Below are positions 23,496-44,515 of a DNA stretch of 64,000 nt, one piece after another; positions within the stretch are counted from its first letter, which is position 1; the number at the start of each line of letters is the position of its first letter. The DNA lies in assembly GCA_000165345.1 (NCBI GenBank), contig CM000436.1:96001-160000 (forward strand). The letters run 5' to 3'. Below the pieces are notes generated by a model. That model searched no databases, had not been told where the DNA came from, and saw only the letters and a list, made by a program, of their open reading frames with translations. The position numbers and the translations under genes are program-made.

Positions 23496-23943
23496 GAAGA
23501 TCGAGTATTTTCTATTCCATGAAAAATTTACAAGAAATTTTCTCTGTTTCCTTTTGCTGTCTCAATTCAATTTTGTGATGGTTAAAGTTAATTAGTTATT
23601 CATAACTCAAATTGAAAGATAAAAAAGAAGTTATTCAAAAATATATTCTATACATACAGGAAGCCATATTTATGTTAATGAATATCATTACACAGAGTAA
23701 TAACAGTATTATTATCCAAAAACTTCTACAAAACTAGCATATATTTCTTCTCTATGGTAAATGGATATAATTTTGGTACTAATCTATTATCTTGAGATAC
23801 AAATTATTATATAATTTATCATTTTTCCTTACTTTTTTGATTAGGAAAGAGAATCTAGGCAGCTATTAAGGAAATCTTGGATGATAATTACTCCTTTAAA
23901 ATTCAATGGTCTTGGTAAGAGATAATGGTAAAGCTTCCAATAT

Positions 23944-24387
23944 TTAACATTTTTCAGAGTAACGATGGAGTGCTGATAGAAGATCATCAGGGGAAATGGC
24001 ATTATCTCCATCACCATCTAAGTTAGTTAACATAGTTTTTAATTCTTCCTCACTCATTGAAAGACCAAGTCTGGAAGCACATGCTGAAAGATCCTCAAGA
24101 TCTATTGTTCCAGTCTTCTTGATATCAAGGCAACTAAAGATATTTACAGCATCTTCAACAGTGAATTTTTTTATCTCATTTCCACTGTTTACAAGACTTA
24201 CAAATCCTGCAAAATCTAGTTTACCTCCACACTCCTGAGTTAGTGAGTTTAGTCTTCCAATGACTGTGTTATCTAATGGAATATCCATACACGTAGCTGC
24301 AGCTCTTAAGAACCCAACATCTAACCCTGATTTACCATCAAGTAAATCAAAAACATCTCTCAATTCTCTAACTTCAGTACTGTCCAT
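23944..24387 (-). CDS. EF-hand (calmodulin-like or myosin-light-chain-like) protein, 147 aa
   Basis: Four degenerate EF-hand-like loops (DLLDGKSGLDVGFL, DIKKTGTIDLEDL, DGDGDNAISPDDL) and the size and acidic composition typical of calmodulin-family light chains. They are not canonical Ca-binding loops. Confidence 0.6.
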   Translation of the reverse strand: MDSTEVRELRDVFDLLDGKSGLDVGFLRAAATCMDIPLDNTVIGRLNSLTQECGGKLDFAGFVSLVNSGNEIKKFTVEDAVNIFSCLDIKKTGTIDLEDLSACASRLGLSMSEEELKTMLTNLDGDGDNAISPDDLLSALHRYSEKC

Positions 24388-24742
24388 TTTTTTTAAAATA
24401 AAATCAAACTGCCAATATTAGTATTAGTTTTCCTTGGATAAAGCCAAATAAAAGAAAATTAATAAAGCTCTGATATATAATTACTCTTTTTTTTTTTTTT
24501 TAAATCTTTACAAATACAACTTCCTTTATAATCTATTTATTACCTTGGCTTAAACAAATACAACAAATCTCGTCAGAAAATAATAATTCGCTTCCACTAT
24601 ATTCGTATTTTATTATTCTCCCTTCCCCTTTGCTCCTCTTTAATACTAAGCTTATATCTGAGATGCTTATATTTATACTTTCTCTTATTTTCCATGTATT
24701 GCCGTTTACATGTCTAATATTATGCACACTTTAATGATGCAA

Positions 24743-24790
24743 ATGTGGCGGCAAAAATGCCCGCCAGACATGCCATATGGCGGTAATGGT
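24743..24790. promoter_or_regulatory. Bidirectional promoter with three E2F-like boxes (ATGTGGCGGCAAAAA, GCCCGCCAGAC, ATATGGCGGTAATGG)
   Basis: Lies between the divergent EF-hand gene (start 24387, -) and the two-exon gene (start 24858, +). Read directly. Confidence 0.45.
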
Positions 24791-24857
24791 GGGGAATTGT
24801 GTAAAAGATTAAAAGAGCTAATTTAGTAGAGAATATAAAGGATGGAAAAGAGGGATT

Positions 24858-25636
24858 ATGTTAGGTAGAGGAGAGGACAATGTGAATGATAGAGACAGTA
24901 ATAGTTTGGAAGATAGTGTGAACGGTTTAGTGGAGGATGAATTGGCAGAGATGATATTGCTGCAGGAAGTGTATGATTTAAGGTTGGAGAAAAAGAAAAT
25001 TAGAGTTGCTGGAATTGTAAAATCCGTGGACTTGATTGAGCAGGAGATTGCGATATTCTACGAGTCCAGAAGCTTAAGAGTGAGTTTGAGGTATGGATTT
25101 TAACTTATAAAGTGCATGGTTTTGGTGAAGGAAAGTAAATATATAGATAATAATTATTGAAAAAAAAAGAAATTAAAAGAAGGGGAGGAGCCATCGTAGT
25201 CAGGTGTGTAATAAGGATAAAAATAACCAATAACACGAGCAATGCTGGCGCCTTTACACGTCATTTCAATGTTTTTAGGTTTTAAACATTGTTTTACCAA
25301 AATCATGTATCATTTCCATAGAGAAAAAAAACTTTTTTTCTTCGAGTAGAAATGATTACTAGATTAATTATCTAACTTTAATATTAATTTATTTTTAGGA
25401 ACTTGAAAAAACCAAGGATTCAAAGCATAGAAAAAGGAAGTAAGGTGGAAGTTATAGGTTACATAATAAATCAGGAAGATTTCAATACATGCGAACTGAA
25501 AGAAAGCAAAACTAAGGGGAATTTGGTTATGATCGCTCAAGTAATAAGAAATATTGATGAAACTAATTTATATTTCCATCAATTAAGTATTATTTTACGT
25601 AGAAAAATACTAAATTCCGTGAATATTATATATTAA
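24858..25636 (+). CDS. Hypothetical small protein, possibly OB-fold-like; proposed two-exon gene join(24858..25090,25399..25636), about 157 aa
   Basis: Two adjacent small ORFs of 81 and 77 aa in compatible phase. A GTATGG donor at 25091 and a ttatttttAG acceptor at 25397-25398 rebuild an AGG codon across the junction. The polypyrimidine acceptor sits immediately before the second ORF. Beta-strand-rich stretches (KIRVAGIVKSVD, GSKVEVIGYIIN). The splice model is unverified. Confidence 0.4.
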
Positions 25637-25941
25637 AGGGTTATAATTTAATTAATTTTATTTTCTAATTGGTTTTTTTTTGCATAGCTTGTATCATATA
25701 TTAAATTATCAATAATAAATGGGTGTCTGCTAATTGATTCAATCCATTCAATCCATCTAAATAGGTAAAGAAAAAAGAGTTAATTTCAAAGTCAGATTTT
25801 GTTCAATTTTTTTTTTTATTAAATAATTTATGTAATCGTAATTATTATTGAATTACGTGTTTTTTGCATGCATGCAAAAAATAACGGTAATTAAATAAAT
25901 TATTAAAAAAAAAAATTGGTATTAGTGATCCCAAAGTAAAC

Positions 25942-28989: not shown

Positions 28990-29157
28990 CCTCCAATTGA
29001 TTTGTTCTCGTCTCTTTCTGAACTTACTCAGCAACTTATACCTTATATATGCATATATTATTTTTGTTTATAAGTATTTTTAAATATATCCAATTATCAA
29101 TAAAATATTCCTCATATTTGCACCTGTGCATGCATTCATAATAATGTGTGACTATTT

Positions 29158-29172
29158 TGATTGGCGCCAACC
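29158..29172. promoter_or_regulatory. E2F-like palindromic box GATTGGCGCCAACCC, about 170 bp upstream of the secreted K/E-rich gene
   Basis: TTGGCGCCAA palindrome read directly. A GCATGCA box sits at 29126-29138. Confidence 0.4.
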
Positions 29173-30066
29173 CATTAGTAATATTAAATTTAAAGATTTT
29201 TAAAGTGAAAAGAAGATATTTTTGAGTTCTAAAGCAATGGAATTTGTTATATAGTTTTACTGAAATGGAAACAGATTGATTGTTTTTTTCTACTTTTTTC
29301 CCCATTCTATCTTTCTTTCATAATAAATTCCAATAAAATACATTGCTAATAGTTAGTTTGTTATATAGAAAAAATTTTTGAATTTATTTGGGGTTTAAAT
29401 TAGAAAAACAAAGATAAATTAAATAATTTTTTGAGTAATCTTTGAAAATTTATTCCAATTCTAATTCTAACTAAATAAAAACTCGTAATTTTTTTTAGAT
29501 TTAAATAAGCTTAAATGTAGAATTAACTTCTAATAGATTTTTGTCATCTAAATTATCAATCAGCTCATATTTCAGTCAAAATTTTTTTTATATTATTGAT
29601 TTATTTTATCCCACATATCATACTTTATTAATAAAAATGATGAAAGATGCACTCACAATTATTTTCAACAATAATGAATATAAAAACCTAGTTAGAAAGT
29701 AAGTGTAATTTCTTCCACTTAATCTTAATCAGTTACGTTTTATTTAATATCTTGTATACCATTAAAATATAAATAACCAAATTAAATAACGTTGGTTTGA
29801 AGTGTTTGCCGCCATTTGTGTGCATTGTATTAAAATAAATAATAAAATAAGATGCGTGTAAAAATATTTGTGGGTTAGAATTGAAATAATTAATATTTGT
29901 GTAGAATTTAAATTAAAATAATACTTTTTGGTATGAGGTGAAGTGGTTTGATAATCATATAATTTATTATTTAGAAACAACCTTAAAAGCCAATTTGATA
30001 TTTAGCCGGAAATATTTTCATTACTTAGTCAAGTCAATTTGACATTAACAAAGTATATTTTCATTG

Positions 30067-30087
30067 ATATATATATATATATATATA
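30067..30087. repeat. (AT)10 microsatellite or TATA-like tract immediately upstream of ATG 30095
   Basis: Read directly. Confidence 0.8.
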
Positions 30088-30515
30088 AAGAAAAATGTCA
30101 GCTGCTGAAGTAAGTTTTGACTACAGGTATACTTGAAGTTTTTTTTTATATTTTTTTTAATTAAAAAAAATATTCAATAGCTCTGTTTCCTTCTTTAGGT
30201 GAGAATAAGAAAGAAACAAAAGCAATAATTCATTTTTTGAATTTTCGAAAATTTATAAATTACTTCAAGTATCCCTTCCTTGCCGTGTTTTCTATTTAAA
30301 CTCAAATACTCATCTTAAACTGCTAGATTGAAAACTGTGCCAACATTCTTGATTGTGAAAAAAAAAATCAATATGATTTAAAACTATCCCATAGAATTCT
30401 AATTTTGGCGGGTGTTTTTGTTAGGTAAGTTTATCGCATGTATTACTTATTAAAGAAGTAAATTAAACAAAATATTTGATTTATAAAATCTAGTGAAGAT
30501 AAAGTACAAGAGTAT

Positions 30516-30944
30516 ATGGAAACCAACTCCAAAACTTCTTTAACCATTGAGGTAAGTCTAATTTCTAAGATTTATGCAATTTCAAAAACGATGTTGTATC
30601 AACCCATAAAGTAAATTATCCAGAAAATTTTTATATTTATTCAACTTTAATACACTCCAATCTTTTTACAGGATTTAAAATCATTTGCGGGAAATGCTAA
30701 GTCAGGTATTCCTACTAAAGATTCTATTAAAAATATGTTTAACCTATTAGATGTTGGTAAATCCGGCCAAGTTGACCTCGAACTACTTAAATATGGACTT
30801 ACATCCATTGGTGCTGACAAATTTAATGGATTTGAAATGGAAGATTTCTACAAATCATTGAATATTAATCTAGAAGAAACAAAAACTGTCACTATTGACC
30901 AAATGGTTGATCATATAATGGAATTACTAACAGCATTCAAATAA
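30516..30944 (+). CDS. Small EF-hand-like protein, spliced; minimal model join(30516..30551,30672..30944), 102 aa, with possible additional 5' exons
   Basis: Terminal exon ORF (…NMFNLLDVGKSGQVDLELLKYGLTSIGADKF…EDFYKSLNINLEETKTVTIDQMVDHIMELL) with EF-hand-like loops. Upstream exon 30494-30551 ends at GAG|GTAAGT and joins in frame to tttttacAG|GAT at 30672. The 120-nt intron contains in-frame stops. E2F-like boxes at 30403-30414 and 29804-29818. Confidence 0.45.
30552..30671 (+). other. Spliceosomal intron (GTAAGT…tctttttacAG), 120 nt, in the EF-hand gene
   Basis: Consensus donor and polypyrimidine-AG acceptor. Exons are in frame only when this is spliced out. Confidence 0.55.
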
Positions 30945-31276
30945 AGTCTAGATTTTACTCCTTATCTGATATCTTAAACTTATTTTAAATCAATTAAATA
31001 TATTACTTTGCCATTTTCATAATTTATTATTTAATGCATATTTATTTCTTTTTTTTAATTTGATTTGCATGATTTTCCCGCCTACATGTAATTATTTTAT
31101 TTAATATTTCATTCTGTCCCATTTTTAAATATTAAATATCAAAATTTAACAAATACCGAAGATTCTGAAAGAACTTGTTCTATAAAAACCTGTTTGCTTA
31201 AGTTAAGAGAAACTTGAGAGTTAAAGAGCTGTTTAACTATTGAAATTGTAAATTATTACATAGGGGAAAATAAAAA

Positions 31277-31425
31277 TATTATATGTATATATAACATATT
31301 ATATGTATATATAACATATTATATGTATATATAACATAATATATATATATATATATAAGTGTATATATATATATATATATATATATGTTATAATATATAT
31401 ATTTATATTTATATATTATTCATTG
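31277..31425. repeat. Tandem repeat (20-bp unit TATTATATGTATATATAACA x3) followed by an (AT)n microsatellite
   Basis: Three near-identical tandem copies at 31277-31336, then long AT dinucleotide runs at 31337-31425, read directly. Confidence 0.85.
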
Positions 31426-31752
31426 ATGTGTGTATAAATCAAATATAATACAGGTAAATTGAATCGAATCAGATAATAAATAAATTAATAATAAAGGTGT
31501 CTGGACAAAGTTCTTTCCCCATTTTTTTTACGCTTATCTGCTTTTCTTTCGACAAAATATCTTTAATATAACTCAAATAATAAATATTACTAAAAAAAAT
31601 AACATTAATAATTCCGATAACTCTTAAATAATTAATTCTGCCAATTTCAATATTCAAAATCACTTAAGATTAGTATTACTATTCTTTTAACTTGATATTA
31701 AAGTATTAATATTCACTTCACACCTCACTATTGATTTATTTTTCATATTAAT

Positions 31753-32482: not shown

Positions 32483-34960
32483 TTAAGAATGAATTCCAAT
32501 TTTCTTTAAATACTTATCAGTTCCCATTACATATCTTCTACCATTTGGACATACATTAATACAATCAACATTAGTAATAGATTCATCAACTCTGAATTCA
32601 GTTGGAACAGTACATGCACCTCCATTTTTTGGAGATGTAAATTGACGGTAAGCTTCTATAGTAAAAATATTAGTCTTGGAACATTTTATACAATCTTTTG
32701 CATTTTTTGGTAACAAATCAACATGACAAGGTTGTGGTAACAGTACTTTTGTTTGAAGATTACATACCAATTCCTCTGGCTCTTTCAGGGAATTTGAACC
32801 GCGTGCAAATAATCTGAATTGTTCATTATTTAATTTTCCGTCTGGTAATACTAAACCTTCAGCATTACCAATTTTCATAGGCATAAATAACCAATTTGGT
32901 TTTTCATTTCTAGATTGTTCACTAAATATAGATCTCGTAGCTTGAACAGTACTATCTAAAATAATTAATGCTTCTTTGTAATTTTCTATTTCATGATCTT
33001 TTAAATTATGATGACTTTTTAATTGACAAGTCTTGATAGATCCAAAAGATGCTGCAGTTACCTGACATCTTGTGAAATTACTGTCAATATTATTGTTTTG
33101 TTTGTTATTACTATTATTATTATTGCTATTATTATTATTGTTATTATTATAATCATCATTTTTTGATTCGGGTATGCCTGAATTTTTACTAACATCACCA
33201 AATATTATACGATTAAATAACTTTTTAATAATATCAATATAATTACTTTGGTTAACTTTTATAGCCTTTTTAATACTTGTAATAATTTTAGTATTATTTT
33301 CAAACTTTGAATTTTTATCCTTTGCTATATTATGTATTAATTCATTATCATTACTCTTTAAAAAGGTGAATCCATCTGGTAATACAAATCTAATTTCATC
33401 AGCTTCTTGAAATAAATGGAAAAATACCCAAATATTAGTAGTCTTATTTAACTGGGAATCTTCAAGATATACCATACAATCACTGCATGGATTTGTATTA
33501 CATGGTTTATATTCAACAATAGGCTTCTTATTACTAACACATGGGTATTCAAATGAATCTGGATATAACTTCTCACCAATCCATCTTGGTATTCCATTAG
33601 CTACTTGTACAATACTTGTAATATTACCAAATCCGCCACATGGAAATGGACAAAATCCCCATGGATATTCTGAAGCTATAGTTCTTAAATTTTCTCTCTC
33701 AACTCTACATCCAAATTCTTTGTTACAATCCTGTTTCATTTCAAATGGACAATCAGAATATTTAATAACCATACCTAAAGACTTACTCCATCCCATTTGT
33801 TTTTCTTCATTCCATGGGTATAAAGTCTCACAATCTGGACCATTACCAGAATTAGTTAATAATATTTTTCTATACTCAATTCTTTTTCCTTTATTCTTTG
33901 AAGCATTACAAGTAACAGTACATGGTATTAATTCTTCCCATGGACCTAATTGGCAACTTACATTACATGGTGTATCACCACATTCTCTTTTCTGATAAGC
34001 TCCACCACATAATTCTTCATCTTTACCAGAAAGTAGAGTTCTTCTCCATATTTCAACACCAGAATCACAAGTTGAACTGCATCCAGTTTCTCTTCTCCAT
34101 GGACTCCATTGACATTCAGCTTTAAGCAATAAACGCGTATTTTCATGTACTTTAGTAATATAATGACCAGATGAAAAGCGAATTTTTGATAGCCACCAGA
34201 AATTCTTGGGGTCATTTTGAACTTTTCTTGTTTCAACAGGAGTTCTTACCTTTAATTGAAATCGATAGTATCCCGGCGCAGGGAATACAGATTCATCTTG
34301 ATTTTGAATTACAAAGTAGATTGACCCATTTGCAGATACTGTTGTACATTTGATTGATATTGGAATAGATTTCATTACTTCTGGACTAATTTCTTGTAAA
34401 TGTTTAACACATGTACATAATTTCTCACTTTTTGGCAATGTATATGATGGTGGAGTAGAAATAATAAAGTAATCAATGGTATGACCTTCAAAAGTTGAAA
34501 AAGGTAAGGTAAGAGTTGCAAATATATCTATATCTGAATCAACAAAACGATTATTTTCTTCAATTTGAAAAATCATTGTTTTCTGAAAATCTATTTCATT
34601 TTGAGATTTTCTTCCTTTTGTTTGAGTTGAAGTTTCTAGAATTGAATCCTTATTCATACCAATAAGTAAATTATTTAATTCCAAATTGTTAGCAAAAATT
34701 TGATCAATATCAGTTTCACTTGCTTTATTTAATTGAAGTGAATCAATTTCATCATTTTGCATTCTATAAGAGTCATTTATTGACTCCAATTTCGATATTC
34801 CAGTTACTTCATTATCTGTTTGTTGCTCATTACTTCCCCTTGATCTAAGTATACTTTCGTCCATATTTTGTATACTTACAGGAGGAGAATAATCAGTAGA
34901 TTCACCAAACAGTCCCCCCACATAATATATAATTAGTATAAATACAAATTTAATTCCCAT
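32483..34960 (-). CDS. Secreted thrombospondin type-1 (TSP1) repeat protein, 825 aa
   Basis: Signal peptide MGIKFVFILIIYYVGGLFG. TSP1 modules CQWSPWRRETGCSSTCDSGVEIWRR…C and CQLGPWEELIPCTVTC, plus further Cys-rich modules. poly-Asn linker. No C-terminal TM helix. Confidence 0.75.
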   Translation of the reverse strand: MGIKFVFILIIYYVGGLFGESTDYSPPVSIQNMDESILRSRGSNEQQTDNEVTGISKLESINDSYRMQNDEIDSLQLNKASETDIDQIFANNLELNNLLIGMNKDSILETSTQTKGRKSQNEIDFQKTMIFQIEENNRFVDSDIDIFATLTLPFSTFEGHTIDYFIISTPPSYTLPKSEKLCTCVKHLQEISPEVMKSIPISIKCTTVSANGSIYFVIQNQDESVFPAPGYYRFQLKVRTPVETRKVQNDPKNFWWLSKIRFSSGHYITKVHENTRLLLKAECQWSPWRRETGCSSTCDSGVEIWRRTLLSGKDEELCGGAYQKRECGDTPCNVSCQLGPWEELIPCTVTCNASKNKGKRIEYRKILLTNSGNGPDCETLYPWNEEKQMGWSKSLGMVIKYSDCPFEMKQDCNKEFGCRVERENLRTIASEYPWGFCPFPCGGFGNITSIVQVANGIPRWIGEKLYPDSFEYPCVSNKKPIVEYKPCNTNPCSDCMVYLEDSQLNKTTNIWVFFHLFQEADEIRFVLPDGFTFLKSNDNELIHNIAKDKNSKFENNTKIITSIKKAIKVNQSNYIDIIKKLFNRIIFGDVSKNSGIPESKNDDYNNNNNNNSNNNNSNNKQNNNIDSNFTRCQVTAASFGSIKTCQLKSHHNLKDHEIENYKEALIILDSTVQATRSIFSEQSRNEKPNWLFMPMKIGNAEGLVLPDGKLNNEQFRLFARGSNSLKEPEELVCNLQTKVLLPQPCHVDLLPKNAKDCIKCSKTNIFTIEAYRQFTSPKNGGACTVPTEFRVDESITNVDCINVCPNGRRYVMGTDKYLKKIGIHS

Positions 34961-35350
34961 TTCCTTTCCACATGTATATATTGAAAATTATTTTTACCTT
35001 ATATAAACTTTAATTATGATTCACTTATTTCTTAGGCAGATAACTTGTACCAATATCTGAAAAATATATTTATTGTAAGCTTAATTAATTGGTTTATTAT
35101 TATTATTATTATATTTTTTTTTCTGGTTGTTTTGAATAAGTATATTTGAACTTTACTTTTAATGACTTAGCTGTTAGCACTCTAAGTTTTCTTATCTTTC
35201 TATAATGATTAATATTTACACTGTTTTATTCAATGATTTCTTTAAACCAGTATTCATATCACAATTTGTTCTCCATTTCAAGCTCATCCCGTCTAATGTC
35301 GATTTTTATTATTTTTTAAAAATTTTCCTTCAAATGCATTTCCATTTACA

Positions 35351-35365
35351 CACGGCGCCAATTCC
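35351..35365. promoter_or_regulatory. E2F-like box CACGGCGCCAATTCC, about 400 bp upstream of the TSP1 gene
   Basis: GGCGCCAA core read directly. Confidence 0.35.
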
Positions 35366-36872
35366 CCACATGCATTTTAGTGTCATATCCAACCACTAAA
35401 AATTTGACCAAAAAGTTTTTTTTAATAACTTAAATTGTATAAAACAACCTCTAAGTTAACATTTAAGTATTATTAATCTTTGTTTTTATTTATTGTTTTC
35501 AAAATTATTTTATTCCCAATTTTGTCATTGAACTTTAAATAAAGATGGCCTTTCATCTTTTCCCCACATAGTTGCACACGTAATTATAATAATCAGATTA
35601 TAAATATATTTTCTCCTTAAAATTTGGATCTTTTCAAATTGTTTTCTCTATCATTTAAAATTATTCTCATTTTCATTTTCTTATTTCATTCTTATTGTCC
35701 GTTTCTATTGCCATTAATTTAATAATTTTTAAAAACCGTCAAATAATTTCAAAGTATAAATATTAATTTAGTATTTTTTTTCTATAAACTTATTGGTATT
35801 TCAACTTCTTATTATTGTCCACATAATACTGGCATGACAAAAACAAATTATTTTCTTAACTACATACCGGAGTACATGCAATCCTTGCATGTAGTAAAAA
35901 AAAAAAAAGAAAGTTGATATAAGGAAATTTGAAAAAATGAGATAAAATTATGTTGATTAAACTTTCAGAAAATGTACAGAACTTTGTAAATCTTACAACT
36001 ATCGGAAATGAAAGCATTAAATAATTAAAAAATAGAGTAAGAGTTATTGGAATAATAACATTAGTAGATTTAAACCAGAGATAAAAGTAGTTAGTTTAGT
36101 GGTTGCATTAGTACTAGTGGTGCAGTAATAGCAGAAATTATTTTATTCATATTAAGAAAAAATTAATAAGAAAGGAAGTAATAGGTAGTTTTATGTCCAA
36201 CCCGAAATGCAGAATCTAAAACTAAGCTTAAAGTAAAAGAAAATACATTGTCTTTTCAAACATTTGAAGCACAAATAAAAAGCAGTACCAATTAACTGTA
36301 GAGTAAATGCACGACAAATTCAGGGTAAAATTAGAAATTAATTTTTCATCTTAAGTTATTCACTGGAACACTTATTTATATTCAAAAATAAGAGAATTAT
36401 TCAGAGAATTGAAAACTAACACATAAAAAAAAAGATGAAAATTAATAGAAGAGAATTCAATATTAACAAAAAAAAAATTCACAAATTCAAAATACTCTTT
36501 CAATAAAGGGAATAATACGTCAAAGTGACGCAAGTTTTTTTAGGCAGCTCCTCTACTAAATTTAAAAAAAAAATTCATTTATCTCTATTATTATTTAATT
36601 TAAATACAATGCTATATTTCCATTATTAATATTAATTCATAAATATATATTACAGTTCGACCTTTTCTTCAAATTTTATCTATGATTACCGCTAATTCTG
36701 ATAATTTTCATTCTGCTAGTTTTCATATGTAATTTTTAATTAACTACTATTATTTCACAATAAATTCCTATTTATTTTTCATTTATCTATTCTATTAATC
36801 AATCCCTGCCTTATTACCCATTTTTCACTATTACTTTAATCTGACATAAATAGTCGAATAATATATTTTATT

Positions 36873-36940
36873 AGGCGGGAACTCAGAAACAATTTTTGGG
36901 TGCCCCACTTATAGTAATTTGTAGACATTTACCCGCTCAG
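36873..36940. promoter_or_regulatory. Two E2F-like boxes (TTAGGCGGGAACTC; ATTTACCCGCTCAG), 90-150 bp upstream of small ORF 37027
   Basis: Read directly. They imply a transcription start ahead of 37027, either for the 68-aa ORF or for a 5' exon/UTR of the giant downstream gene. Confidence 0.35.
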
Positions 36941-37026
36941 ACAAAGCAAAAGTTTTCTTTAAAGTTAAGATCAGAAAGCTAAATTAATCTATAAAAGGTA
37001 AAAAGACACTAATTCTCTTATAAATT

Positions 37027-37233
37027 TTGTGTTTAAAGAGAATCCAGTGGGGATCTATGGAAAACCATCACAAGCCTGGAACAATCTACTCGAGCTTGCA
37101 GATAAAAGAGGCGATCTTATATGAGCTAAAAAGATTGCCAAAAGACAACAAGGTATTTAGGAGGGATGCTAATTTATTCTTTCTCTCAGACAGAGATTCG
37201 GTTAAGGAACTTTGTGAACAGAAAGAGAACTAG
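37027..37233 (+). CDS. Small 68-aa ORF of uncertain status, downstream of promoter-like E2F boxes
   Basis: ATG in a good context, no low-complexity, and preceded by E2F boxes. It is short, has no recognisable homology, and could be a uORF or exon of the next gene. Confidence 0.25.
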   Translation: MCLKRIQWGSMENHHKPGTIYSSLQIKEAILYELKRLPKDNKVFRRDANLFFLSDRDSVKELCEQKEN

Positions 37234-37456
37234 TATTATTTCTTCATTGGTTGGAATAAAAGACTAATTAAGCTTTAATTAATACTTAAAATTGGAAAAA
37301 TCGATTTGTCTCACTTAAGTTTTAGAAATCTTAATGTTATTTGGCTGATTATTTATGTACATTGGAGTATTATAGTGTACATATCTGAAATCAATACTAA
37401 AACTTTACTTTATGTGTTAAGTCTTCTATCGTTTGATATTTTTTCATTTTGAAACA

Positions 37457-40400
37457 ATGCATAGCAACAAAAGAAAACATAGAAAAAACAAGGAATTTAC
37501 CAATAGTTGGCCTCTAACACTTGACCATAGTTTAATGGAGTCATTGACGAAGAATGTTTCCGCCAGAGAAACCGAATTTTTAGAGGAAGTTAAACTCTAT
37601 AAATCAAGACTAATTAATTCCAATAACTCTTCAACAACTTTAAACTCCATGATCCTTCATTACAGTGACAAATTTCCTGCTGACTCATTCATCTCGAGAT
37701 TGTATGCTAACCCACATTCTATTCTATTTCTATTCAATATTATCCCTCCTTTGCTTTCTTGTTCTAGTACTGGAACTCCTTTTTTAAGCAAAGAAAGATC
37801 AGAAATACTCACTTTTGTTATTCAACTCCTCTTTAAATCATTAATCAAACACTGTCAGATTATCCTCTCTATTGACAAGAGATTAGATAATTCTATTGTG
37901 AATCTGAGTATGAGTTTAACACATCATATTCAAACAGTATTCTCTGGAAATCAAGATCTTGCAATTATGATGAGCTCATGCACAAGTCTATTAATTATCC
38001 TCTCAAATAGTTCAGCTAACTATATTCGAAATATTGTCTCTAACTTTGAAGTCGTTTCTGGTAATTTATCTTACGAATATGATTGTATCCGTAAAATGGC
38101 CTCTAGAGAATCCATTGTCAGCAATAATAAACTCTTTCAAAGACTTCCTTTTCAAAATAACCTTAAAATTGGTAATTTTATCTCATATTTAAGGTATTTA
38201 GAAGGAATTGCTAACCTTTATCTTTTAAATGTTGAAAGACCCAATTTTCTTACTCCTAATAAAAAAGCTACTATTGAAAAAGTTATCCTCTCCATGTCTC
38301 CTGTAGTTCTTGAACAAATGGAGAAACTTATCACTATCTACTTTTCTCAATACAAACCCGAAAATATCTTTGGTGATTATTCTCTCTTTTATGATGGAGA
38401 AGGAGCTAGACTGAAATTTATTGATTTTATTGCACCAATAATTATCCAAACTTCACTCAAATGGGTATCTGCATCTCAAGAAATCAGCCTTAGAAGATTT
38501 AGCAAGTTACATACTAGCTCCTATTTTGATATCTCAAAGTTCCCTAATATCCTTGAAATGGTATTATTACCTATACGAAGGGACCAAATCAGTGATGAAG
38601 TTTCGGATATCATCCTAAACTTTTTAGAAAGTTACTCAGCTCATCTTAGTCTATCAAACAAACACTCTGTACCGATCTCTGTATTATCCAAAAATATTCT
38701 AATCTCATCATTGTTATTGTCAAGCTCAATGAACAAGGATTCTACAATATTCACTTTGAGAGAAGAACTTTCTTTATTAAATACAAACCTAAACTGGCTT
38801 AAGGTTTTAATCAAGTACTTTAAGATCTTTTCTCATTCTTTAGTACCTTTACTAATCATTTTTGATCTAATGGATCTTCCCTTAAACTCTGATCTTGAAA
38901 AGCTAGAGTTTGAGGATCCATCCATTCAAGATTTATATCAAGAATGGATCGATACTTGTTCAACAACTTTTTTGAAAATTGTCTTTGAAACAATTTCCAA
39001 GGCATCTAGAATCTCTAAGGTTAACAGAGCCACATTTTCTGCACCAATCATGATCACATGTGGTGATTATCATCAATCAAAAGATTTGAAGTCATCTGTT
39101 AATGATCAAAGCTTTATCAAGAGTAACTTTGATATTGCTGATATGAGAGTAGGACTTGAGATGGATCTAGATTTAGATCTTGATCATGAAATTCCAAGAA
39201 TTATCGATGATTTTGGTCAAACTTTAGGAATTGATTATAGAAATGATCCAGATTTGGGTTCTGGATTACTTTTTCTGCCAGAAACTCTTAATGTTAATGA
39301 TAATACAAAATTACCATTTAACAAATTATCTCAAAGTAATGTTCATAACAGTACTTCAATGATTCCTAATCCTATTCAGTTTACTGACTTCAAACACCAA
39401 CATATTCATCATTATCAGCACCAACATCAGCAGCATCTTATGGACGTGCCAGATTTTAACATTCAACTAGGCAGTGAAAGTAGCCATATTTTCCAAAAAT
39501 ATCGTCGAGAAGTACATTATTTAATGTGTTGCTTATCCTTAATCACTTTAAGAGGATCATCTGAGTTTATATTACTCTCGATTTCTGGTTGGGGAAGTTT
39601 ATGTAATTCATTGAGAATTTCATCTTCATGTAGTTCATATCTTGAAGATCTTTTAATGATCACCAATCAGACTAAGTTTAAGCCTTTAGAAGAATGCTTT
39701 CAAAAAATTAAAAACCAAAGAGAAAACGTTTCTGACAAATTTGCAGATATTGATGAAATTGGTCTTGTTGGAATACAAAGGTACTTTGTTTGGTCAATTG
39801 TCCAATTAGGAGAATTTCCTGATGAGCTTTATAACTTTGAAGATCATTCAGATTCATATTTCCCAAAATTCTCACAGAAGAAATCGAATCATTTGAAGAT
39901 TAGAGAATCTATCAGAGATGCTGTTAGAAATGCAATATTCTTCCCAGAATCTCCCAATATTGCAAATCCTGGTTTTGATGATAATGATAATAATAATATT
40001 AACAAAATAAATTATCATCTTTCAACAAATTCAAGAGGTATTATTAAATATATATTGCCTTTCTATTCTTTCCAAATGTTCCTTAAAGATACATATCTTC
40101 ATCTAAATGGATTTAATCTTGTTAGTTATATTGGATCTGGACAAATCAAAATTAAAAGATCTATACCAAATACTAATAATATACAAATTAAAAGCTTTAT
40201 TGTACGCTTAGAATCCATTTTACATGCATTTAGTGCAATTATTAAGAAGGGATTAACATCTTTCCCTTTAAGACCTAATACAACCAAAATAACTGAAAAG
40301 ATGGGTAATGATGATCTTAATAGAATGTATAACAATGAAGATGAAATTAGGAGTTTGTTAGAAATGGTCAATGCTTCCTTAAAAATTGATGATGAAGATG

Positions 40401-43400
40401 TAATTAATAGTGAACTTAATAATCGCGAATTAGTTCTTGGTAATGAAAATGACTATTTTGAACAAACTCGAATTCTCTTTGATGCTGTTATGCTTAAAAT
40501 CTTCAAAGTAACTGGCGAATTTGAAGGTCTTATGGACATTTACCTTAGAAATTGTCATCAGAGATTAGCAGACCAAAGAATTATGATTGATGATGGAGTT
40601 AGAGTTTATGAGAGATTATTTAGACAATTATTATGTACTTTAATTACTCTACTTGGAGTTAGCTCAGTTTGGTTTAATGATAAATCCATTCTAGTCACTT
40701 TAAAAGGTCTTAAATATATTTTTAGATCACTACAACTTATTCAAGAAGATCATTTCTTCCCATTGGCTCTAGAACAAGATCATGTTGGAGCCTTAGCCTT
40801 GTTAAAGCTTTCTCAAAACAAGACATGTTTTGAAAATGAAATCTTGGATTATATGGTTGTCAAATGTATGGATTCATTTTCTAGACTATTCTCTGATTCT
40901 AAAAAACAAGTTGAAATTCCCTCAATGACTTTTGAGAGCTATCTAATTCTATTAACTTCACTTGGAATTTGTATTTCACATATCATTTCTGATGTTGATA
41001 AAGATCATCTATCATTCTATTCTTGTACTAATTCACCAAAATCCATTTCAGCAACAACTTCTTCATCAGTTTCAGCTTCAAATGTTGGTAATAACAAAGA
41101 ACATCTTTATCTATTTAAAAAACTACAAAAATGGAAGAAGTATACTGGAATGGTCTTGGAGAAATACTTGTATCTATTAGATAGATTAATTGAGATCTAT
41201 AATGTCAAGATTATGGATCAAGATTCTTTCAAGAATATGGATGGCAATCATGGTAATTGTAGTCATAACAAAAATAAGATACCGGTAACTGATGATGAAA
41301 TTTGTCAAATTTATAATTTATTATTAGTGACTTACATGTTATTTTGTGGACTTGAAGCATTCTTTTCTTCAATATTTCCATGTAAGTATAGGCCGTATAG
41401 TTATGTAATACTTACAATAGGAGCAGAGAAATTTTCTCATTTGAATATTTTGGAATATAGCAAGAAATTATTCGAGTCAGAGAGTAATCTAAAATCTTCT
41501 ATTGCTGCTAAGATTTTAAAGGATGCTTCTAATTACATTTTAGGGTTCTTTTCAAAGGAGTTTTATTCAAGGATAAGAATTATTTTACGTTTATCATGTG
41601 CTATTTCACCAAATTGGTTACAAGTACTTTATCATCCATATACTTGTATAATATCTTGCATACTCCAATTACCATTTTTGAGTACGAATAATATAAATGG
41701 TGAGGGGGGAGGCTCAGACCTTCTTCTTGGGTTGTATAGATATATTGGTTATGATGAGTTCCAATTTCTTTCAATGGACGCTCCTTTTGGCAATCTACGT
41801 GGTTGCGTTGGTGTAATGGGTGGTCATATTATTACTAATAGTAATGGTAATAGTAATAACAGCAACTTGAATATGAGTATTAGCAGCAGTAGTGGTGGTA
41901 GTACCAGTATAAATATTATTAATAATAATAATAATATTAGTAACAATGGTAATAGTAATAATAACAGTAATAATAATCATATTAACAATAACAATAATAA
42001 TATTAATAACAATACTATTAATAATAACAATAATAGCGGAATTGGGATAGGAGGAATGATAGCAGGAATTACTGCTAATAATGGTGTTATGATTCCTAAT
42101 ATCCAGAGAGGTAGAGATTTGGGGAGTAAATGTAATTGTTGTTTTAATGGGGAAAATGAGGGTTTTGGTTCCAATGGGATAATAAAGAAAGGGTTGCATC
42201 CTATAATAACTTTGATCTACAAATTATTACTATTTAATAGGGGGTTAAATGTTGATGCAATTTCTATTACGAAATTGCTACAATCTAACTTTCGGGGTTT
42301 GGGAAACTTTAGTGTTGGTGGAAGTGTGATAACTGGAGGGACAGGAGCGGGAGTAGGAGTGGGAACGGGAATAGAGGTCGGTCTAAGTGGATGGTCACCA
42401 TTATCGTCATCATCCACTTTGGGTTTTGTCAGTAATGGCGGAAATAACCAGAAATATCTTAAGGACGTGTTTAATATGTTGAAAGGGGACTTAATGTTTT
42501 ACAGGGGTGATGGGGGGAATTGTCATAATGGTGACAATCATAATAATGATAATAATAATAATAATGCTTTTTCAAAAGTATGTATTTGCAATTATGTTCC
42601 AAATATTTTTTTACCATTGTCAGTAATGATGTTAAGGGTACCATATTTTACACTAAAAGGGAAGCAGAAATTTTTGGACCCAATATTGTCATTTATTAAC
42701 TCCTTTAAAACATTTAATGTGCATCCAATCATCCAGTTTTTGAGTTATTACTCTGTTAGTGTTTCTACTTTAACTAGCATAAATAGAGATGATTATAAGC
42801 TACAAGATTCGACGGGTTATTTTAGATATTTTAAGAAAGATTCTGGATTACAAGATGTAAATAAACTAAACACCTTTTGTATGTATGTGAATCAGATGAG
42901 TAATTTAGATGGTAATCTCCGAATGAATAATAGCAGAATTGATGATCATTGTTCTTGCTTGGAGTACCATGATGGCGTTTGTTTAACTTTACTATTATTG
43001 TTACAGAATTTGACAAATTTATCAGTAACTAATGATAACTGTTATCCTGGACAAGGGGGAGGTAATACTGGGATGGGAATTTTAGGTGGATGTAATGGAG
43101 CTTATAACGTGAATACAAGCTTCATTAAGATCGTTGGTACTCCGATACGAGCGAATTTGGAAGTATTTATAGAATATGTAATATCAAGATGTATAGTTAC
43201 ATTATTAATATGTATAGGAGCACAAAATTGTAATATAAAGAGAAGAGTAGAAAAGGAGAGGATTATGAATTACTATAATAATAATCCTATAGAGATGAAT
43301 TTAAATGATTATAATAGTTACAATGATGGTTCAAATGGGGCATTATCATCAATTAAATCAATATTCAATGAAAATAACAACAGCAGTAGAAGGATATTTA

Positions 43401-44515
43401 ATCAAGGAGGACCAGTAGTAGATAGAGGAATGATAATTACTACTCCAGGATCCGAAACAATACAAAATATTGGAATAAATGGAGGAGGTATAAGTATGAA
43501 TGGAACAGGATCATATTCTGTGTTATGCGGCAATAATGGTAATAATAGTAATAATAATAATATGAATATGAACAATGTGAATAACAATAATATAAGCTTT
43601 TCAGGGGAAAGTATTTATGATATGGAACCCGATCAGATTAAAGATGAGTTGAAACAAAATGAGATTAATGAAAGGTTTATACCACAAAAACTACTTTCAA
43701 ATCAAAGGTGGGTAGTAATTACAATAAAATATTTACTAGGAACAGAATTTACAAGTAGGATTAATAAACAACAAATTGAGAGATTATTTACAAGCTCAGT
43801 TTGGGGTGTAGAGTTGACAACAACCATTTTATTGGCAATTTTAGAATCATATTGTGATTCTGAATCCTTTTCAATACTTTCCGATATTTTGATTTTAATT
43901 AGACAATTACTTAACAAGAAACGTTTCAGAAATCTTTTAGAAGCTTCGTTCTGCAGACTTCCAATAAGAATGTTGATTCATTCAGCAAATATTTCAACTC
44001 ATTATCCGATGTTACACTTCCCATTAACAAATGGTATAAAAATGAATGATTATTTCTTAAGAAGGGATTTTGAGAAGAATTTAACAAAAAATCATGGAAG
44101 TAATTATCACCAGAAATCAAAGAGTTCTTTGGTTGCTTGTACAGTTCGACAGTTCGTCTATAGACTATTAGAGGAGAATTTCTTTTTAAATTCGAACATG
44201 ATGGATATGGGTTTTCCTCATAATGGGAATAATGGAAATGGTAATATGAATATTTTTGATTTCAATAGTGGTAATTTTGGTAAGAATTTTGTGAATAATG
44301 AAGAGTTTTCCCACATGCACGAGGATATGTCATTTGGCGGGAATGTGAATTATAAACTTCCATATATATTAAAGTCTTCATTTACATCAGATGTGATAAA
44401 GGATTTTATTCAACAGATTGTGAGCGTTTCAGTGTCTCAAACGAACAAGACAAAGTTCAGGCAGATTTTGAAAGAATTTTGCGTAAAATCAGTGTGCAAG
44501 AGAATGGATGAATAA
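37457..44515 (+). CDS. Giant hypothetical protein (about 2352 aa from first ATG) with long Asn/Gly-rich low-complexity inserts
   Basis: Single 7-kb ORF. The track start at 37433 is a TTG; the first ATG is 37457. Non-repetitive alpha-helical-looking segments are interrupted by poly-N and poly-G tracts (for example 41820-42060 and 43500-43580). No domain recognised. Confidence 0.65.
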   Translation: MHSNKRKHRKNKEFTNSWPLTLDHSLMESLTKNVSARETEFLEEVKLYKSRLINSNNSSTTLNSMILHYSDKFPADSFISRLYANPHSILFLFNIIPPLLSCSSTGTPFLSKERSEILTFVIQLLFKSLIKHCQIILSIDKRLDNSIVNLSMSLTHHIQTVFSGNQDLAIMMSSCTSLLIILSNSSANYIRNIVSNFEVVSGNLSYEYDCIRKMASRESIVSNNKLFQRLPFQNNLKIGNFISYLRYLEGIANLYLLNVERPNFLTPNKKATIEKVILSMSPVVLEQMEKLITIYFSQYKPENIFGDYSLFYDGEGARLKFIDFIAPIIIQTSLKWVSASQEISLRRFSKLHTSSYFDISKFPNILEMVLLPIRRDQISDEVSDIILNFLESYSAHLSLSNKHSVPISVLSKNILISSLLLSSSMNKDSTIFTLREELSLLNTNLNWLKVLIKYFKIFSHSLVPLLIIFDLMDLPLNSDLEKLEFEDPSIQDLYQEWIDTCSTTFLKIVFETISKASRISKVNRATFSAPIMITCGDYHQSKDLKSSVNDQSFIKSNFDIADMRVGLEMDLDLDLDHEIPRIIDDFGQTLGIDYRNDPDLGSGLLFLPETLNVNDNTKLPFNKLSQSNVHNSTSMIPNPIQFTDFKHQHIHHYQHQHQQHLMDVPDFNIQLGSESSHIFQKYRREVHYLMCCLSLITLRGSSEFILLSISGWGSLCNSLRISSSCSSYLEDLLMITNQTKFKPLEECFQKIKNQRENVSDKFADIDEIGLVGIQRYFVWSIVQLGEFPDELYNFEDHSDSYFPKFSQKKSNHLKIRESIRDAVRNAIFFPESPNIANPGFDDNDNNNINKINYHLSTNSRGIIKYILPFYSFQMFLKDTYLHLNGFNLVSYIGSGQIKIKRSIPNTNNIQIKSFIVRLESILHAFSAIIKKGLTSFPLRPNTTKITEKMGNDDLNRMYNNEDEIRSLLEMVNASLKIDDEDVINSELNNRELVLGNENDYFEQTRILFDAVMLKIFKVTGEFEGLMDIYLRNCHQRLADQRIMIDDGVRVYERLFRQLLCTLITLLGVSSVWFNDKSILVTLKGLKYIFRSLQLIQEDHFFPLALEQDHVGALALLKLSQNKTCFENEILDYMVVKCMDSFSRLFSDSKKQVEIPSMTFESYLILLTSLGICISHIISDVDKDHLSFYSCTNSPKSISATTSSSVSASNVGNNKEHLYLFKKLQKWKKYTGMVLEKYLYLLDRLIEIYNVKIMDQDSFKNMDGNHGNCSHNKNKIPVTDDEICQIYNLLLVTYMLFCGLEAFFSSIFPCKYRPYSYVILTIGAEKFSHLNILEYSKKLFESESNLKSSIAAKILKDASNYILGFFSKEFYSRIRIILRLSCAISPNWLQVLYHPYTCIISCILQLPFLSTNNINGEGGGSDLLLGLYRYIGYDEFQFLSMDAPFGNLRGCVGVMGGHIITNSNGNSNNSNLNMSISSSSGGSTSINIINNNNNISNNGNSNNNSNNNHINNNNNNINNNTINNNNNSGIGIGGMIAGITANNGVMIPNIQRGRDLGSKCNCCFNGENEGFGSNGIIKKGLHPIITLIYKLLLFNRGLNVDAISITKLLQSNFRGLGNFSVGGSVITGGTGAGVGVGTGIEVGLSGWSPLSSSSTLGFVSNGGNNQKYLKDVFNMLKGDLMFYRGDGGNCHNGDNHNNDNNNNNAFSKVCICNYVPNIFLPLSVMMLRVPYFTLKGKQKFLDPILSFINSFKTFNVHPIIQFLSYYSVSVSTLTSINRDDYKLQDSTGYFRYFKKDSGLQDVNKLNTFCMYVNQMSNLDGNLRMNNSRIDDHCSCLEYHDGVCLTLLLLLQNLTNLSVTNDNCYPGQGGGNTGMGILGGCNGAYNVNTSFIKIVGTPIRANLEVFIEYVISRCIVTLLICIGAQNCNIKRRVEKERIMNYYNNNPIEMNLNDYNSYNDGSNGALSSIKSIFNENNNSSRRIFNQGGPVVDRGMIITTPGSETIQNIGINGGGISMNGTGSYSVLCGNNGNNSNNNNMNMNNVNNNNISFSGESIYDMEPDQIKDELKQNEINERFIPQKLLSNQRWVVITIKYLLGTEFTSRINKQQIERLFTSSVWGVELTTTILLAILESYCDSESFSILSDILILIRQLLNKKRFRNLLEASFCRLPIRMLIHSANISTHYPMLHFPLTNGIKMNDYFLRRDFEKNLTKNHGSNYHQKSKSSLVACTVRQFVYRLLEENFFLNSNMMDMGFPHNGNNGNGNMNIFDFNSGNFGKNFVNNEEFSHMHEDMSFGGNVNYKLPYILKSSFTSDVIKDFIQQIVSVSVSQTNKTKFRQILKEFCVKSVCKRMDE

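Follow-up and report, generated by a model that had tools for sequence, protein, structure and literature searches.

Human ASDURF is a candidate beta-type subunit of the prefoldin-like module of URI, UXT, PDRG1, PFD2 and PFD6, and in Arabidopsis it has been recovered together with UXT (PMC10893143, PMC8567396). ASDURF is reported both in humans and in Arabidopsis (PMC10893143) and is therefore ancient in eukaryotes, which makes an orthologue in an alveolate plausible. A second described system is the long non-coding RNA (lncRNA) set of Cryptosporidium parvum, in which Cp_lnc_349 is classed as one of only 33 long intergenic non-coding RNAs (lincRNAs) by a strict pipeline (Li et al. 2021, PMC7840661). 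Both systems meet in the DNA studied here, a window of 64,000 nucleotides (nt) from contig CM000436.1 of assembly GCA_000165345.1 (positions 96,001 to 160,000, forward strand), whose locus is taken to be on C. parvum chromosome 8. In this window, the gap at 34961-37456 separates the gene for TSP12 from a giant open reading frame (ORF) of 2,352 amino acids (aa). We find that the gap contains, next to Cp_lnc_349, a small gene for a 58-aa protein. This protein is best described as a truncated ASDURF-like beta-prefoldin microprotein, whose biochemical role would follow by analogy.

37057..37233, plus strand: protein-coding gene of 58 aa (stop included in the coordinates), MENHHKPGTIYSSLQIKEAILYELKRLPKDNKVFRRDANLFFLSDRDSVKELCEQKEN, putative ASDURF-like beta-prefoldin microprotein, from synteny, ratios of nonsynonymous to synonymous substitution (dN/dS) and profiles.

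The longest ORF of the gap runs from 37027 to 37233 on the plus strand and has 68 aa counted from a TTG, or 58 aa counted from the ATG at 37057. Its conservation was followed in syntenic loci fetched via the TSP12 orthologues of C. hominis (L001, L002), C. ubiquitum (L004), C. canis (L005), C. felis (L006), C. bovis (L007), C. serpentis (L008) and a Cryptosporidium contig of the Logan assemblies (L009; SRR31860986 contig 670, here the Logan contig). By tblastn the peptide is matched at the syntenic position with 95% identity in C. hominis, 93% in C. ubiquitum, 80% in the Logan contig, 78% in C. canis, 72% in C. felis, 59% in C. bovis and 44% in C. serpentis. All eight orthologues have an ATG at the aligned position and a stop within a few codons of the same place, with lengths of 54-61 aa. 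The pairwise dN/dS after Nei and Gojobori is 0.09-0.32 in every comparison with unsaturated dS, except for the near-identical pair C. parvum and C. hominis, where it is 0.47 with only 3 substitutions. Differences within the small ORF are concentrated at the third codon position (for example 6/8/23 at the three positions against C. felis), and tblastx against distant species gives a strong match in the frame of the small ORF only. The conserved start and stop, the low dN/dS and the frame-restricted tblastx match thus speak for purifying selection on the peptide and not for conservation of a DNA element, and the small ORF is a genuine gene. The initial annotation of this stretch had offered a small protein gene as one possible content of the gap and TBLASTN against related species as a way to check it; with syntenic matches in seven other species, that option is borne out.

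In the protein sets of C. parvum and C. hominis that were queried, the small gene is absent. Neither the C. parvum nor the C. hominis peptide occurs in exact form in a collection of about 15 billion predicted proteins, which does contain the C. bovis and C. xiaoi orthologues under the name "hypothetical protein". Among the NCBI annotations of the syntenic gaps, the only annotated gene is a 57-aa "hypothetical protein" of C. bovis just upstream of the giant gene. The neighbour table of the lncRNA paper likewise has no annotated coding sequence between CPATCC_0000580 and CPATCC_0000590, since the antisense RNA of CPATCC_0000590 lists CPATCC_0000580 as its next gene (PMC7840661). On the Logan contig, automatic gene calls in the gap comprise the small-gene orthologue P0027 (61 aa), its only other machine-called copy, and two short ORFs of 81 and 47 residues. 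In a word-indexed search, the 58-aa query finds one orthologue among 5.8 billion proteins, from a Logan assembly, and an exhaustive HMMER search of 1.84 billion representatives returns the Logan orthologue, the C. bovis orthologue and the repeat protein P0148 only. P0148 (978 aa, tandem repeats) is matched in 13 stretches via a short C-terminal segment, and we judge it a repeat-driven artefact. For detection of the 58-aa protein, the predicted tryptic peptides are ENHHKPGTIYSSLQIK, EAILYELK and DANLFFLSDR.

The initial annotation had left the affinity of this ORF unknown, and here it can be corrected. In a Pfam scan, the window peptide gives sub-threshold matches to Prefoldin_2 (PF01920) and to ASNSD1-SEP (PF21975) on the same central stretch, the latter with 18.6 bits and an E value of 0.002. 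All eight orthologues match both families, with 15.9-24.5 bits on PF21975 (best E value 2.9e-5). In the two most divergent orthologues, those of C. bovis and C. serpentis, PF21975 is preferred over PF01920 with 24.5 versus 21.2 and 24.1 versus 16.4 bits, respectively. For a direct comparison we used an alignment of 13 vertebrate ASDURFs, gathered with a query that is 97% identical to the Sapajus protein named "ASNSD1 upstream open reading frame protein". Alignment of the eight Cryptosporidium peptides with these 13 sequences by hhalign gives a probability of 97%, an E value of 1.3e-10 and 36% identity over 44 columns, and BLASTP of the single peptide against Sapajus ASDURF gives an E value of 4e-7. 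Conversely, the hidden Markov model (HMM) of vertebrate ASDURF was run against the 1,171 six-frame ORF segments of the window and picks out the small ORF alone (E value 1.8e-4; next best 0.3). Residues Glu23, Leu27, Lys29, Lys32, Val33, Asn39, Phe41, Phe42, Leu43 and Arg46 are invariant in the joint alignment. Judged by profile comparison, and not by Pfam's own threshold, the small protein is homologous to ASDURF.

The predicted structure is consistent with this assignment. An AlphaFold2 model, calculated with the window peptide, P0027 and the vertebrate ASDURFs as input, contains a helix at residues 13-26, two strands at 33-36 and 39-42 and a second helix at 46-54, and thus shows the helix, beta-hairpin, helix topology of beta-prefoldins. 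Its mean predicted local distance difference test score is 68, with 70-78 over the core. Structure searches with the model give nothing significant, and prefoldin beta chains have the best TM-scores among their matches. Several observations weigh against a full equivalence with ASDURF. None of the eight orthologues reaches the gathering cut-off of PF21975 (27 bits; best 24.5). Full-length coiled-coil arms, as in the vertebrate protein of about 96 aa, are not found in orthologues of 54-61 aa; about 20 N-terminal and about 20 C-terminal residues of ASDURF are lacking in the Cryptosporidium protein, and the alignment ends at ASDURF residue 74 of 96. The protein is about 40% shorter than ASDURF and its stop is conserved in eight species. 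A second exon that would prolong the C-terminal helix is not found: downstream there is no coiled-coil-like frame, and the conservation is at the nucleotide level in all frames.

Directly before the small gene lies a second conserved element.

36874..36998, plus strand: conserved upstream block of the small gene, from multi-species alignment.

This block is 79-88% identical to C. ubiquitum. It consists of the E2F-like box GGCGGGAA at 36874-36881, a nearly invariant 37-mer at 36900-36936 that begins with GTGCCCCAC and ends with the second E2F-like box TTTACCCGC (36928-36936), and the TATA-like TATAAAAGG at 36990-36998; a CCCGC is also included. The E2F-like boxes had been pointed out in the initial annotation, and they are kept in other species. 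TATAAAAGG stands about 60 nt before the ATG of the small gene and is followed by a conserved short leader. Because the tblastx matches carry stop codons in every frame, the block is non-coding, and it looks like a dedicated promoter of the small gene.

The gap as a whole spans 2,496 base pairs (bp), from the end of the TSP12 ORF to the ATG of the giant ORF at 37457. Its ORFs of at least 50 aa are 35205-35399 (plus, 64 aa), 35856-36017 (minus, 53 aa), 36372-36533 (minus, 53 aa) and the small gene itself (37027-37233, plus). The window has 29.6% GC and is densely filled with long ORFs, and the median gap between ORFs of at least 150 aa is 732 bp; the genome-wide mean intergenic gap of C. parvum is 504 bp (PMC7840661). 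The initial description of a region of 2.5 kb, without any ORF above 68 aa and unusually long for its surroundings, is therefore accurate. So is its account of the composition. From 35870 to 36560 the plus strand has 60.9% purine (A 46%, G 15%, only 11% C), which is in the top 2.3% of all 691-nt windows and is otherwise reached inside plus-strand coding sequence, while the T-rich part at 35400-35850 has 46% T and 40% purine. The pyrimidine richness of 35019-35802 equals that of minus-strand coding regions, and both the AT and the GC skew change sign near 35,860-35,900. Neither tRNAs nor Rfam families turn up in scans of the window and of the region, which for Rfam holds at the gathering score and also up to an E value of 1, and a repeat search of the gap gives low-complexity A/T matches only.

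TSP12 and the giant gene are divergent neighbours in every locus compared, 1.6-2.5 kb apart, and the long gap is therefore a conserved property of the locus. On the Logan contig the gap is 3.2 kb by gene call, where a later giant-gene start is used by the caller; relative to the other species this start is called about 570 bp too far downstream. To be noted, the TSP12 of this contig is 78% identical and its GC content is higher (36% in the gap). By blastn and three-way global alignment, three islands are conserved within the gap, namely 35265-35390, a palindrome at 35873-35893 and about 36,860-37,456, the last of which is 79-89% identical to C. ubiquitum. Between the islands the identity to C. 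ubiquitum is 45-69%, with a minimum of 45-57% over 35,961-36,360; this minimum is about as low as anywhere in the gap, as judged against other parts of the gap and without a random-alignment baseline. The gap is probably a composite divergent regulatory region and not a single feature.

Two further ORF-free gaps of more than 2.4 kb occur in the window, at 23496-25941 and 29035-31752. The syntenic stretches in the C. hominis and C. ubiquitum annotations contain small spliced genes, for a calmodulin-like EF-hand protein of 147 aa, a Ten1-like protein and an EF-hand protein of about 100-148 aa. Since the syntenic annotations show such genes, long gaps of this window that look empty usually correspond to small genes with introns.

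Within the purine-rich tract we find a known transcript.

35993..36369, plus strand: lincRNA Cp_lnc_349 (CPATCC_0000585), 377 nt, exact match to the published sequence.

It was located by searching 13-mers of the purine-rich tract in the supplementary FASTA file of Li et al. 2021, and 377 of 377 nt are identical (PMC7840661). An lncRNA had been another of the initially proposed contents of the gap, and this published plus-strand lincRNA answers to it. Cp_lnc_349 is longer than 200 nt, intergenic and without coding capacity, and the evidence for its transcription is that of the published study. It is listed between CPATCC_0000580 and CPATCC_0000590, and its expression correlates with theirs at 0.68 and 0.66, respectively (PMC7840661). 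The expression values are 5.23 in oocysts, 5.20 at 0 h, 5.28 at 2 h, 5.72 at 24 h and 6.18 at 48 h on a scale with a floor of 5.19, and the RNA is flagged as up-regulated from the oocyst/sporozoite to the asexual (intracellular) stage (PMC7840661). It contains no plus-strand ORF of at least 20 aa, has no Rfam match and folds without excess stability (z-score 0.02). Its sequence is not conserved beyond C. hominis and falls in the least conserved part of the gap. Cp_lnc_349 is thus already published and annotated, and it is without sign of sequence or structural constraint.

Cp_lnc_349 may nevertheless be a functional regulatory lincRNA, acting for example on TSP12 or on neighbouring genes, and not promoter-associated noise. 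Such a function is suggested by its passage through the strict published pipeline as one of so few lincRNAs, by its rise into the intracellular stages and its correlation with both neighbours, and by the long gap, which every one of the eight species maintains at 1.6-2.5 kb, or up to 3.2 kb if the Logan gene call is followed. On the other hand, its expression is near the floor, it has neither a thermodynamic structure signal nor an Rfam match, and its sequence is the least conserved of the gap, at about the level of other poorly conserved parts. With expression near the floor and an unconserved sequence it may have no function of its own, and we regard a regulatory role as doubtful. The same tract could instead conceal an intron-containing protein gene that ORF scanning overlooks. 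This would agree with its coding-like composition and with the EF-hand and Ten1 genes that the C. hominis annotation places in the other long gaps of the window. However, none of the six NCBI genome annotations calls a gene in the tract (the 47-residue ORF of the Logan contig may fall in it, and was not compared), and tblastx shows no frame-specific conservation over 35400-36870. The tract is unalignable even with C. ubiquitum, and the lack of a plus-strand ORF of at least 20 aa in the lincRNA argues in the same direction. A hidden spliced gene is thus very improbable.

A different question is whether the small ORF is independent of the giant gene, and here the evidence comes from the spacer between the two.

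37354..37383, plus strand: conserved hairpin/palindrome TATGTACA-(TTGGAGTATTATAG)-TGTACATA, 75-105 nt upstream of the giant-gene ATG.

As a further option of the initial annotation, the 58-codon ORF could be an upstream open reading frame (uORF) on the messenger RNA (mRNA) of the 2,352-aa gene, in a bicistronic arrangement like human ASDURF-ASNSD1, with spacer and hairpin controlling downstream translation. Both ORFs lie on the same strand. The spacer at 37234-37456 is short, with 223 nt in three species, 183-242 nt in three others and 96 nt in C. serpentis, and its 84-89% identity to C. ubiquitum is as high as that of the coding part. An AATAAA word after the small-ORF stop is not conserved in C. 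ubiquitum. The 14-nt loop TTGGAGTATTATAG of the hairpin is invariant in six Cryptosporidium species, and among five distinct sequences its stem of 8 bp stays 100% paired through two compensatory and two G-U changes. The G-U changes fit a plus-strand RNA; the covariation is weak evidence, as it is matched by 34 of 500 shuffles, and in C. bovis and C. serpentis the hairpin is absent as such. Against a uORF, reinitiation would be hindered by three ATGs in the spacer, a distance of about 200 bp is normal between tandem genes of the C. parvum genome, and the C. bovis annotators called the small gene separately. We therefore hold the uORF to be unlikely, and it would be compatible with the peptide also being a functional microprotein. 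It is quite unlikely in its specific form, where a minimal ASDURF, with a beta-hairpin and stub helices, would come from the 5' cistron of a bicistronic mRNA and the spacer hairpin would govern reinitiation at the 2,352-aa cistron. If true, this arrangement would echo vertebrate ASDURF-ASNSD1 and would be the first conserved bicistronic mRNA described in the parasite. The small ORF could also serve as exon 1 of the giant gene, with a splice that leads from a GT at the small-ORF stop codon to an AG shortly past the annotated ATG. In the window, the GT at 37232 and the AG at 37463-37464 would indeed join both frames without a stop. But C. hominis, C. ubiquitum and C. bovis have no donor and acceptor pair that joins the frames, and the GT at the stop codon is GC in C. 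hominis and C. ubiquitum (TAGCATTA, TAGCTTCA). As the donor is not conserved across species, we reject a splice that would link the small ORF to the giant ORF, and a shared first exon is scarcely credible. The spacer with its hairpin could serve as promoter or leader of the giant gene, or as an intercistronic element.

Two elements belong to the left part of the gap.

35265..35390, minus strand: conserved non-coding block, candidate TSP12 core promoter, about 300-430 nt upstream of the TSP12 ATG.

35873..35893, no assigned strand: palindrome TACATGCAA-TCC-TTGCATGTA with conserved arms, followed by an A13 tract at 35896-35908.

The block is 83% identical to C. ubiquitum, compared with about 50-60% in its flanks, and blastn gives it 79% identity in both C. 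canis and the Logan contig and 19 identical nt in C. felis. Within the block lie GGCGCCAA (35354-35361) and words of the TGCATG type, which are one upstream motif reported for lncRNAs (PMC7840661). This block is probably the TSP12 core promoter. The palindrome lies 100-120 nt upstream of the lincRNA 5' end, at the point where the AT and GC skews change sign. Its arms are kept in C. ubiquitum while the spacer is changed, and in C. canis, the Logan contig and C. felis, TGCATGCA words occur about as far from TSP12. The motif table of the lncRNA paper gives a poly-A/T motif at -96 of Cp_lnc_349 (PMC7840661). As the composition flip, the palindrome and the lincRNA start coincide, we read this as a candidate regulatory element, either distal or bidirectional, in the region upstream of TSP12, and the lincRNA would be its rightward product.

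The left neighbour of the gap, TSP12, corresponds to the ORF at 32483-34960 on the minus strand (825 aa). It is 97% identical to C. hominis TSP12 (818 aa), and its orthologues carry the name TSP12 throughout Cryptosporidium. On the Spondin-like TSP1 model of Pfam this ORF scores 24.8 bits, under the cut-off of 41. The right neighbour is the giant ORF, which runs on the plus strand from the ATG at 37457 to 44515; a Pfam scan finds no domain in its 2,352 aa. The region of the window is syntenic with positions 118-140 kb of the C. hominis record LN877954.1. An antisense lncRNA on the minus strand, Cp_lnc_377 (CPATCC_0000593), is described opposite the giant gene CPATCC_0000590 (37457-44515); its expression correlation is 0.69 with the sense gene and 0.83 with TSP12 (PMC7840661).

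From these elements a picture of the gap can be proposed, in which promoters, transcript boundaries and complex membership are putative. At the left, the TSP12 promoter block would be followed by a fast-evolving AT-rich spacer, where the TGCATG palindrome and the A-tract mark the flip in strand composition. The low-abundance plus-strand Cp_lnc_349 would start to the right of this flip, most likely as a by-product or local regulator of the promoter region. Next would come a compact gene with an E2F-like and TATA-like promoter, encoding the 58-aa ASDURF homologue, and finally the conserved 223-nt spacer with its hairpin, leading into the 2,352-aa gene. The beta-hairpin of the microprotein may become part of the beta-barrel core in a prefoldin-like hexamer, as is proposed for ASDURF in the URI/UXT/PDRG1/PFD2/PFD6 module of the PAQosome; the coiled-coil arms of the microprotein are much shorter than those of the animal proteins.

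The genome of C. parvum, a major diarrhoeal pathogen, is very compact, with about 3,900 genes, and is used as a reference. That a conserved gene is missing from the gene sets of both C. parvum and C. hominis illustrates that ORFs of fewer than 100 codons are still lost in annotation. The link to ASDURF is a testable lead, as a prefoldin-like assembly chaperone module of the PAQosome type may exist in a reduced parasite. Furthermore, a natural "minimal" ASDURF would help to find out which portion of a beta-prefoldin its assembly into the complex requires. The small gene is a useful gain in annotation but adds no new kind of system; elsewhere the region is ordinary, and the lincRNA had already been published. 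Among the papers that literature searches listed, nothing relevant was seen on ASDURF or prefoldin in Cryptosporidium or another apicomplexan, or on Cryptosporidium microproteins.

When compared with the known systems, Cp_lnc_349 is a member of the C. parvum lincRNA set, being AT-rich, single-exon, intergenic and positively correlated with its neighbours; at 377 nt it is shorter than the mean lncRNA length of 1,267 nt in the same study (PMC7840661). The likeness of the small protein to canonical beta-prefoldins (PF01920) consists of the sub-threshold match over the hairpin region, at profile positions 25-70 of 106. Archaeal prefoldin beta (PDB 1FXK) is both its best sequence match in the PDB and its best TM-score, yet neither is significant (E value 0.4; Foldseek E value about 3). 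Canonical subunits have 100-130 aa, and the coiled-coil arms of the Cryptosporidium protein are far shorter. From ASDURF it differs in its length of 54-61 aa versus about 96 aa, without the disordered N-terminus and with a C-terminal helix shorter by about 20 residues, and in its downstream gene, which encodes the 2,352-aa protein without a Pfam domain and not an asparagine-synthetase-domain protein. With ASDURF it shares its nature as a microprotein, the core motif ...EL..L.K..KVY/F(R)...N(I/L)FFL.DR..., the predicted topology of helix, beta-hairpin and helix, and the position of its gene shortly before a much larger ORF of the same strand.

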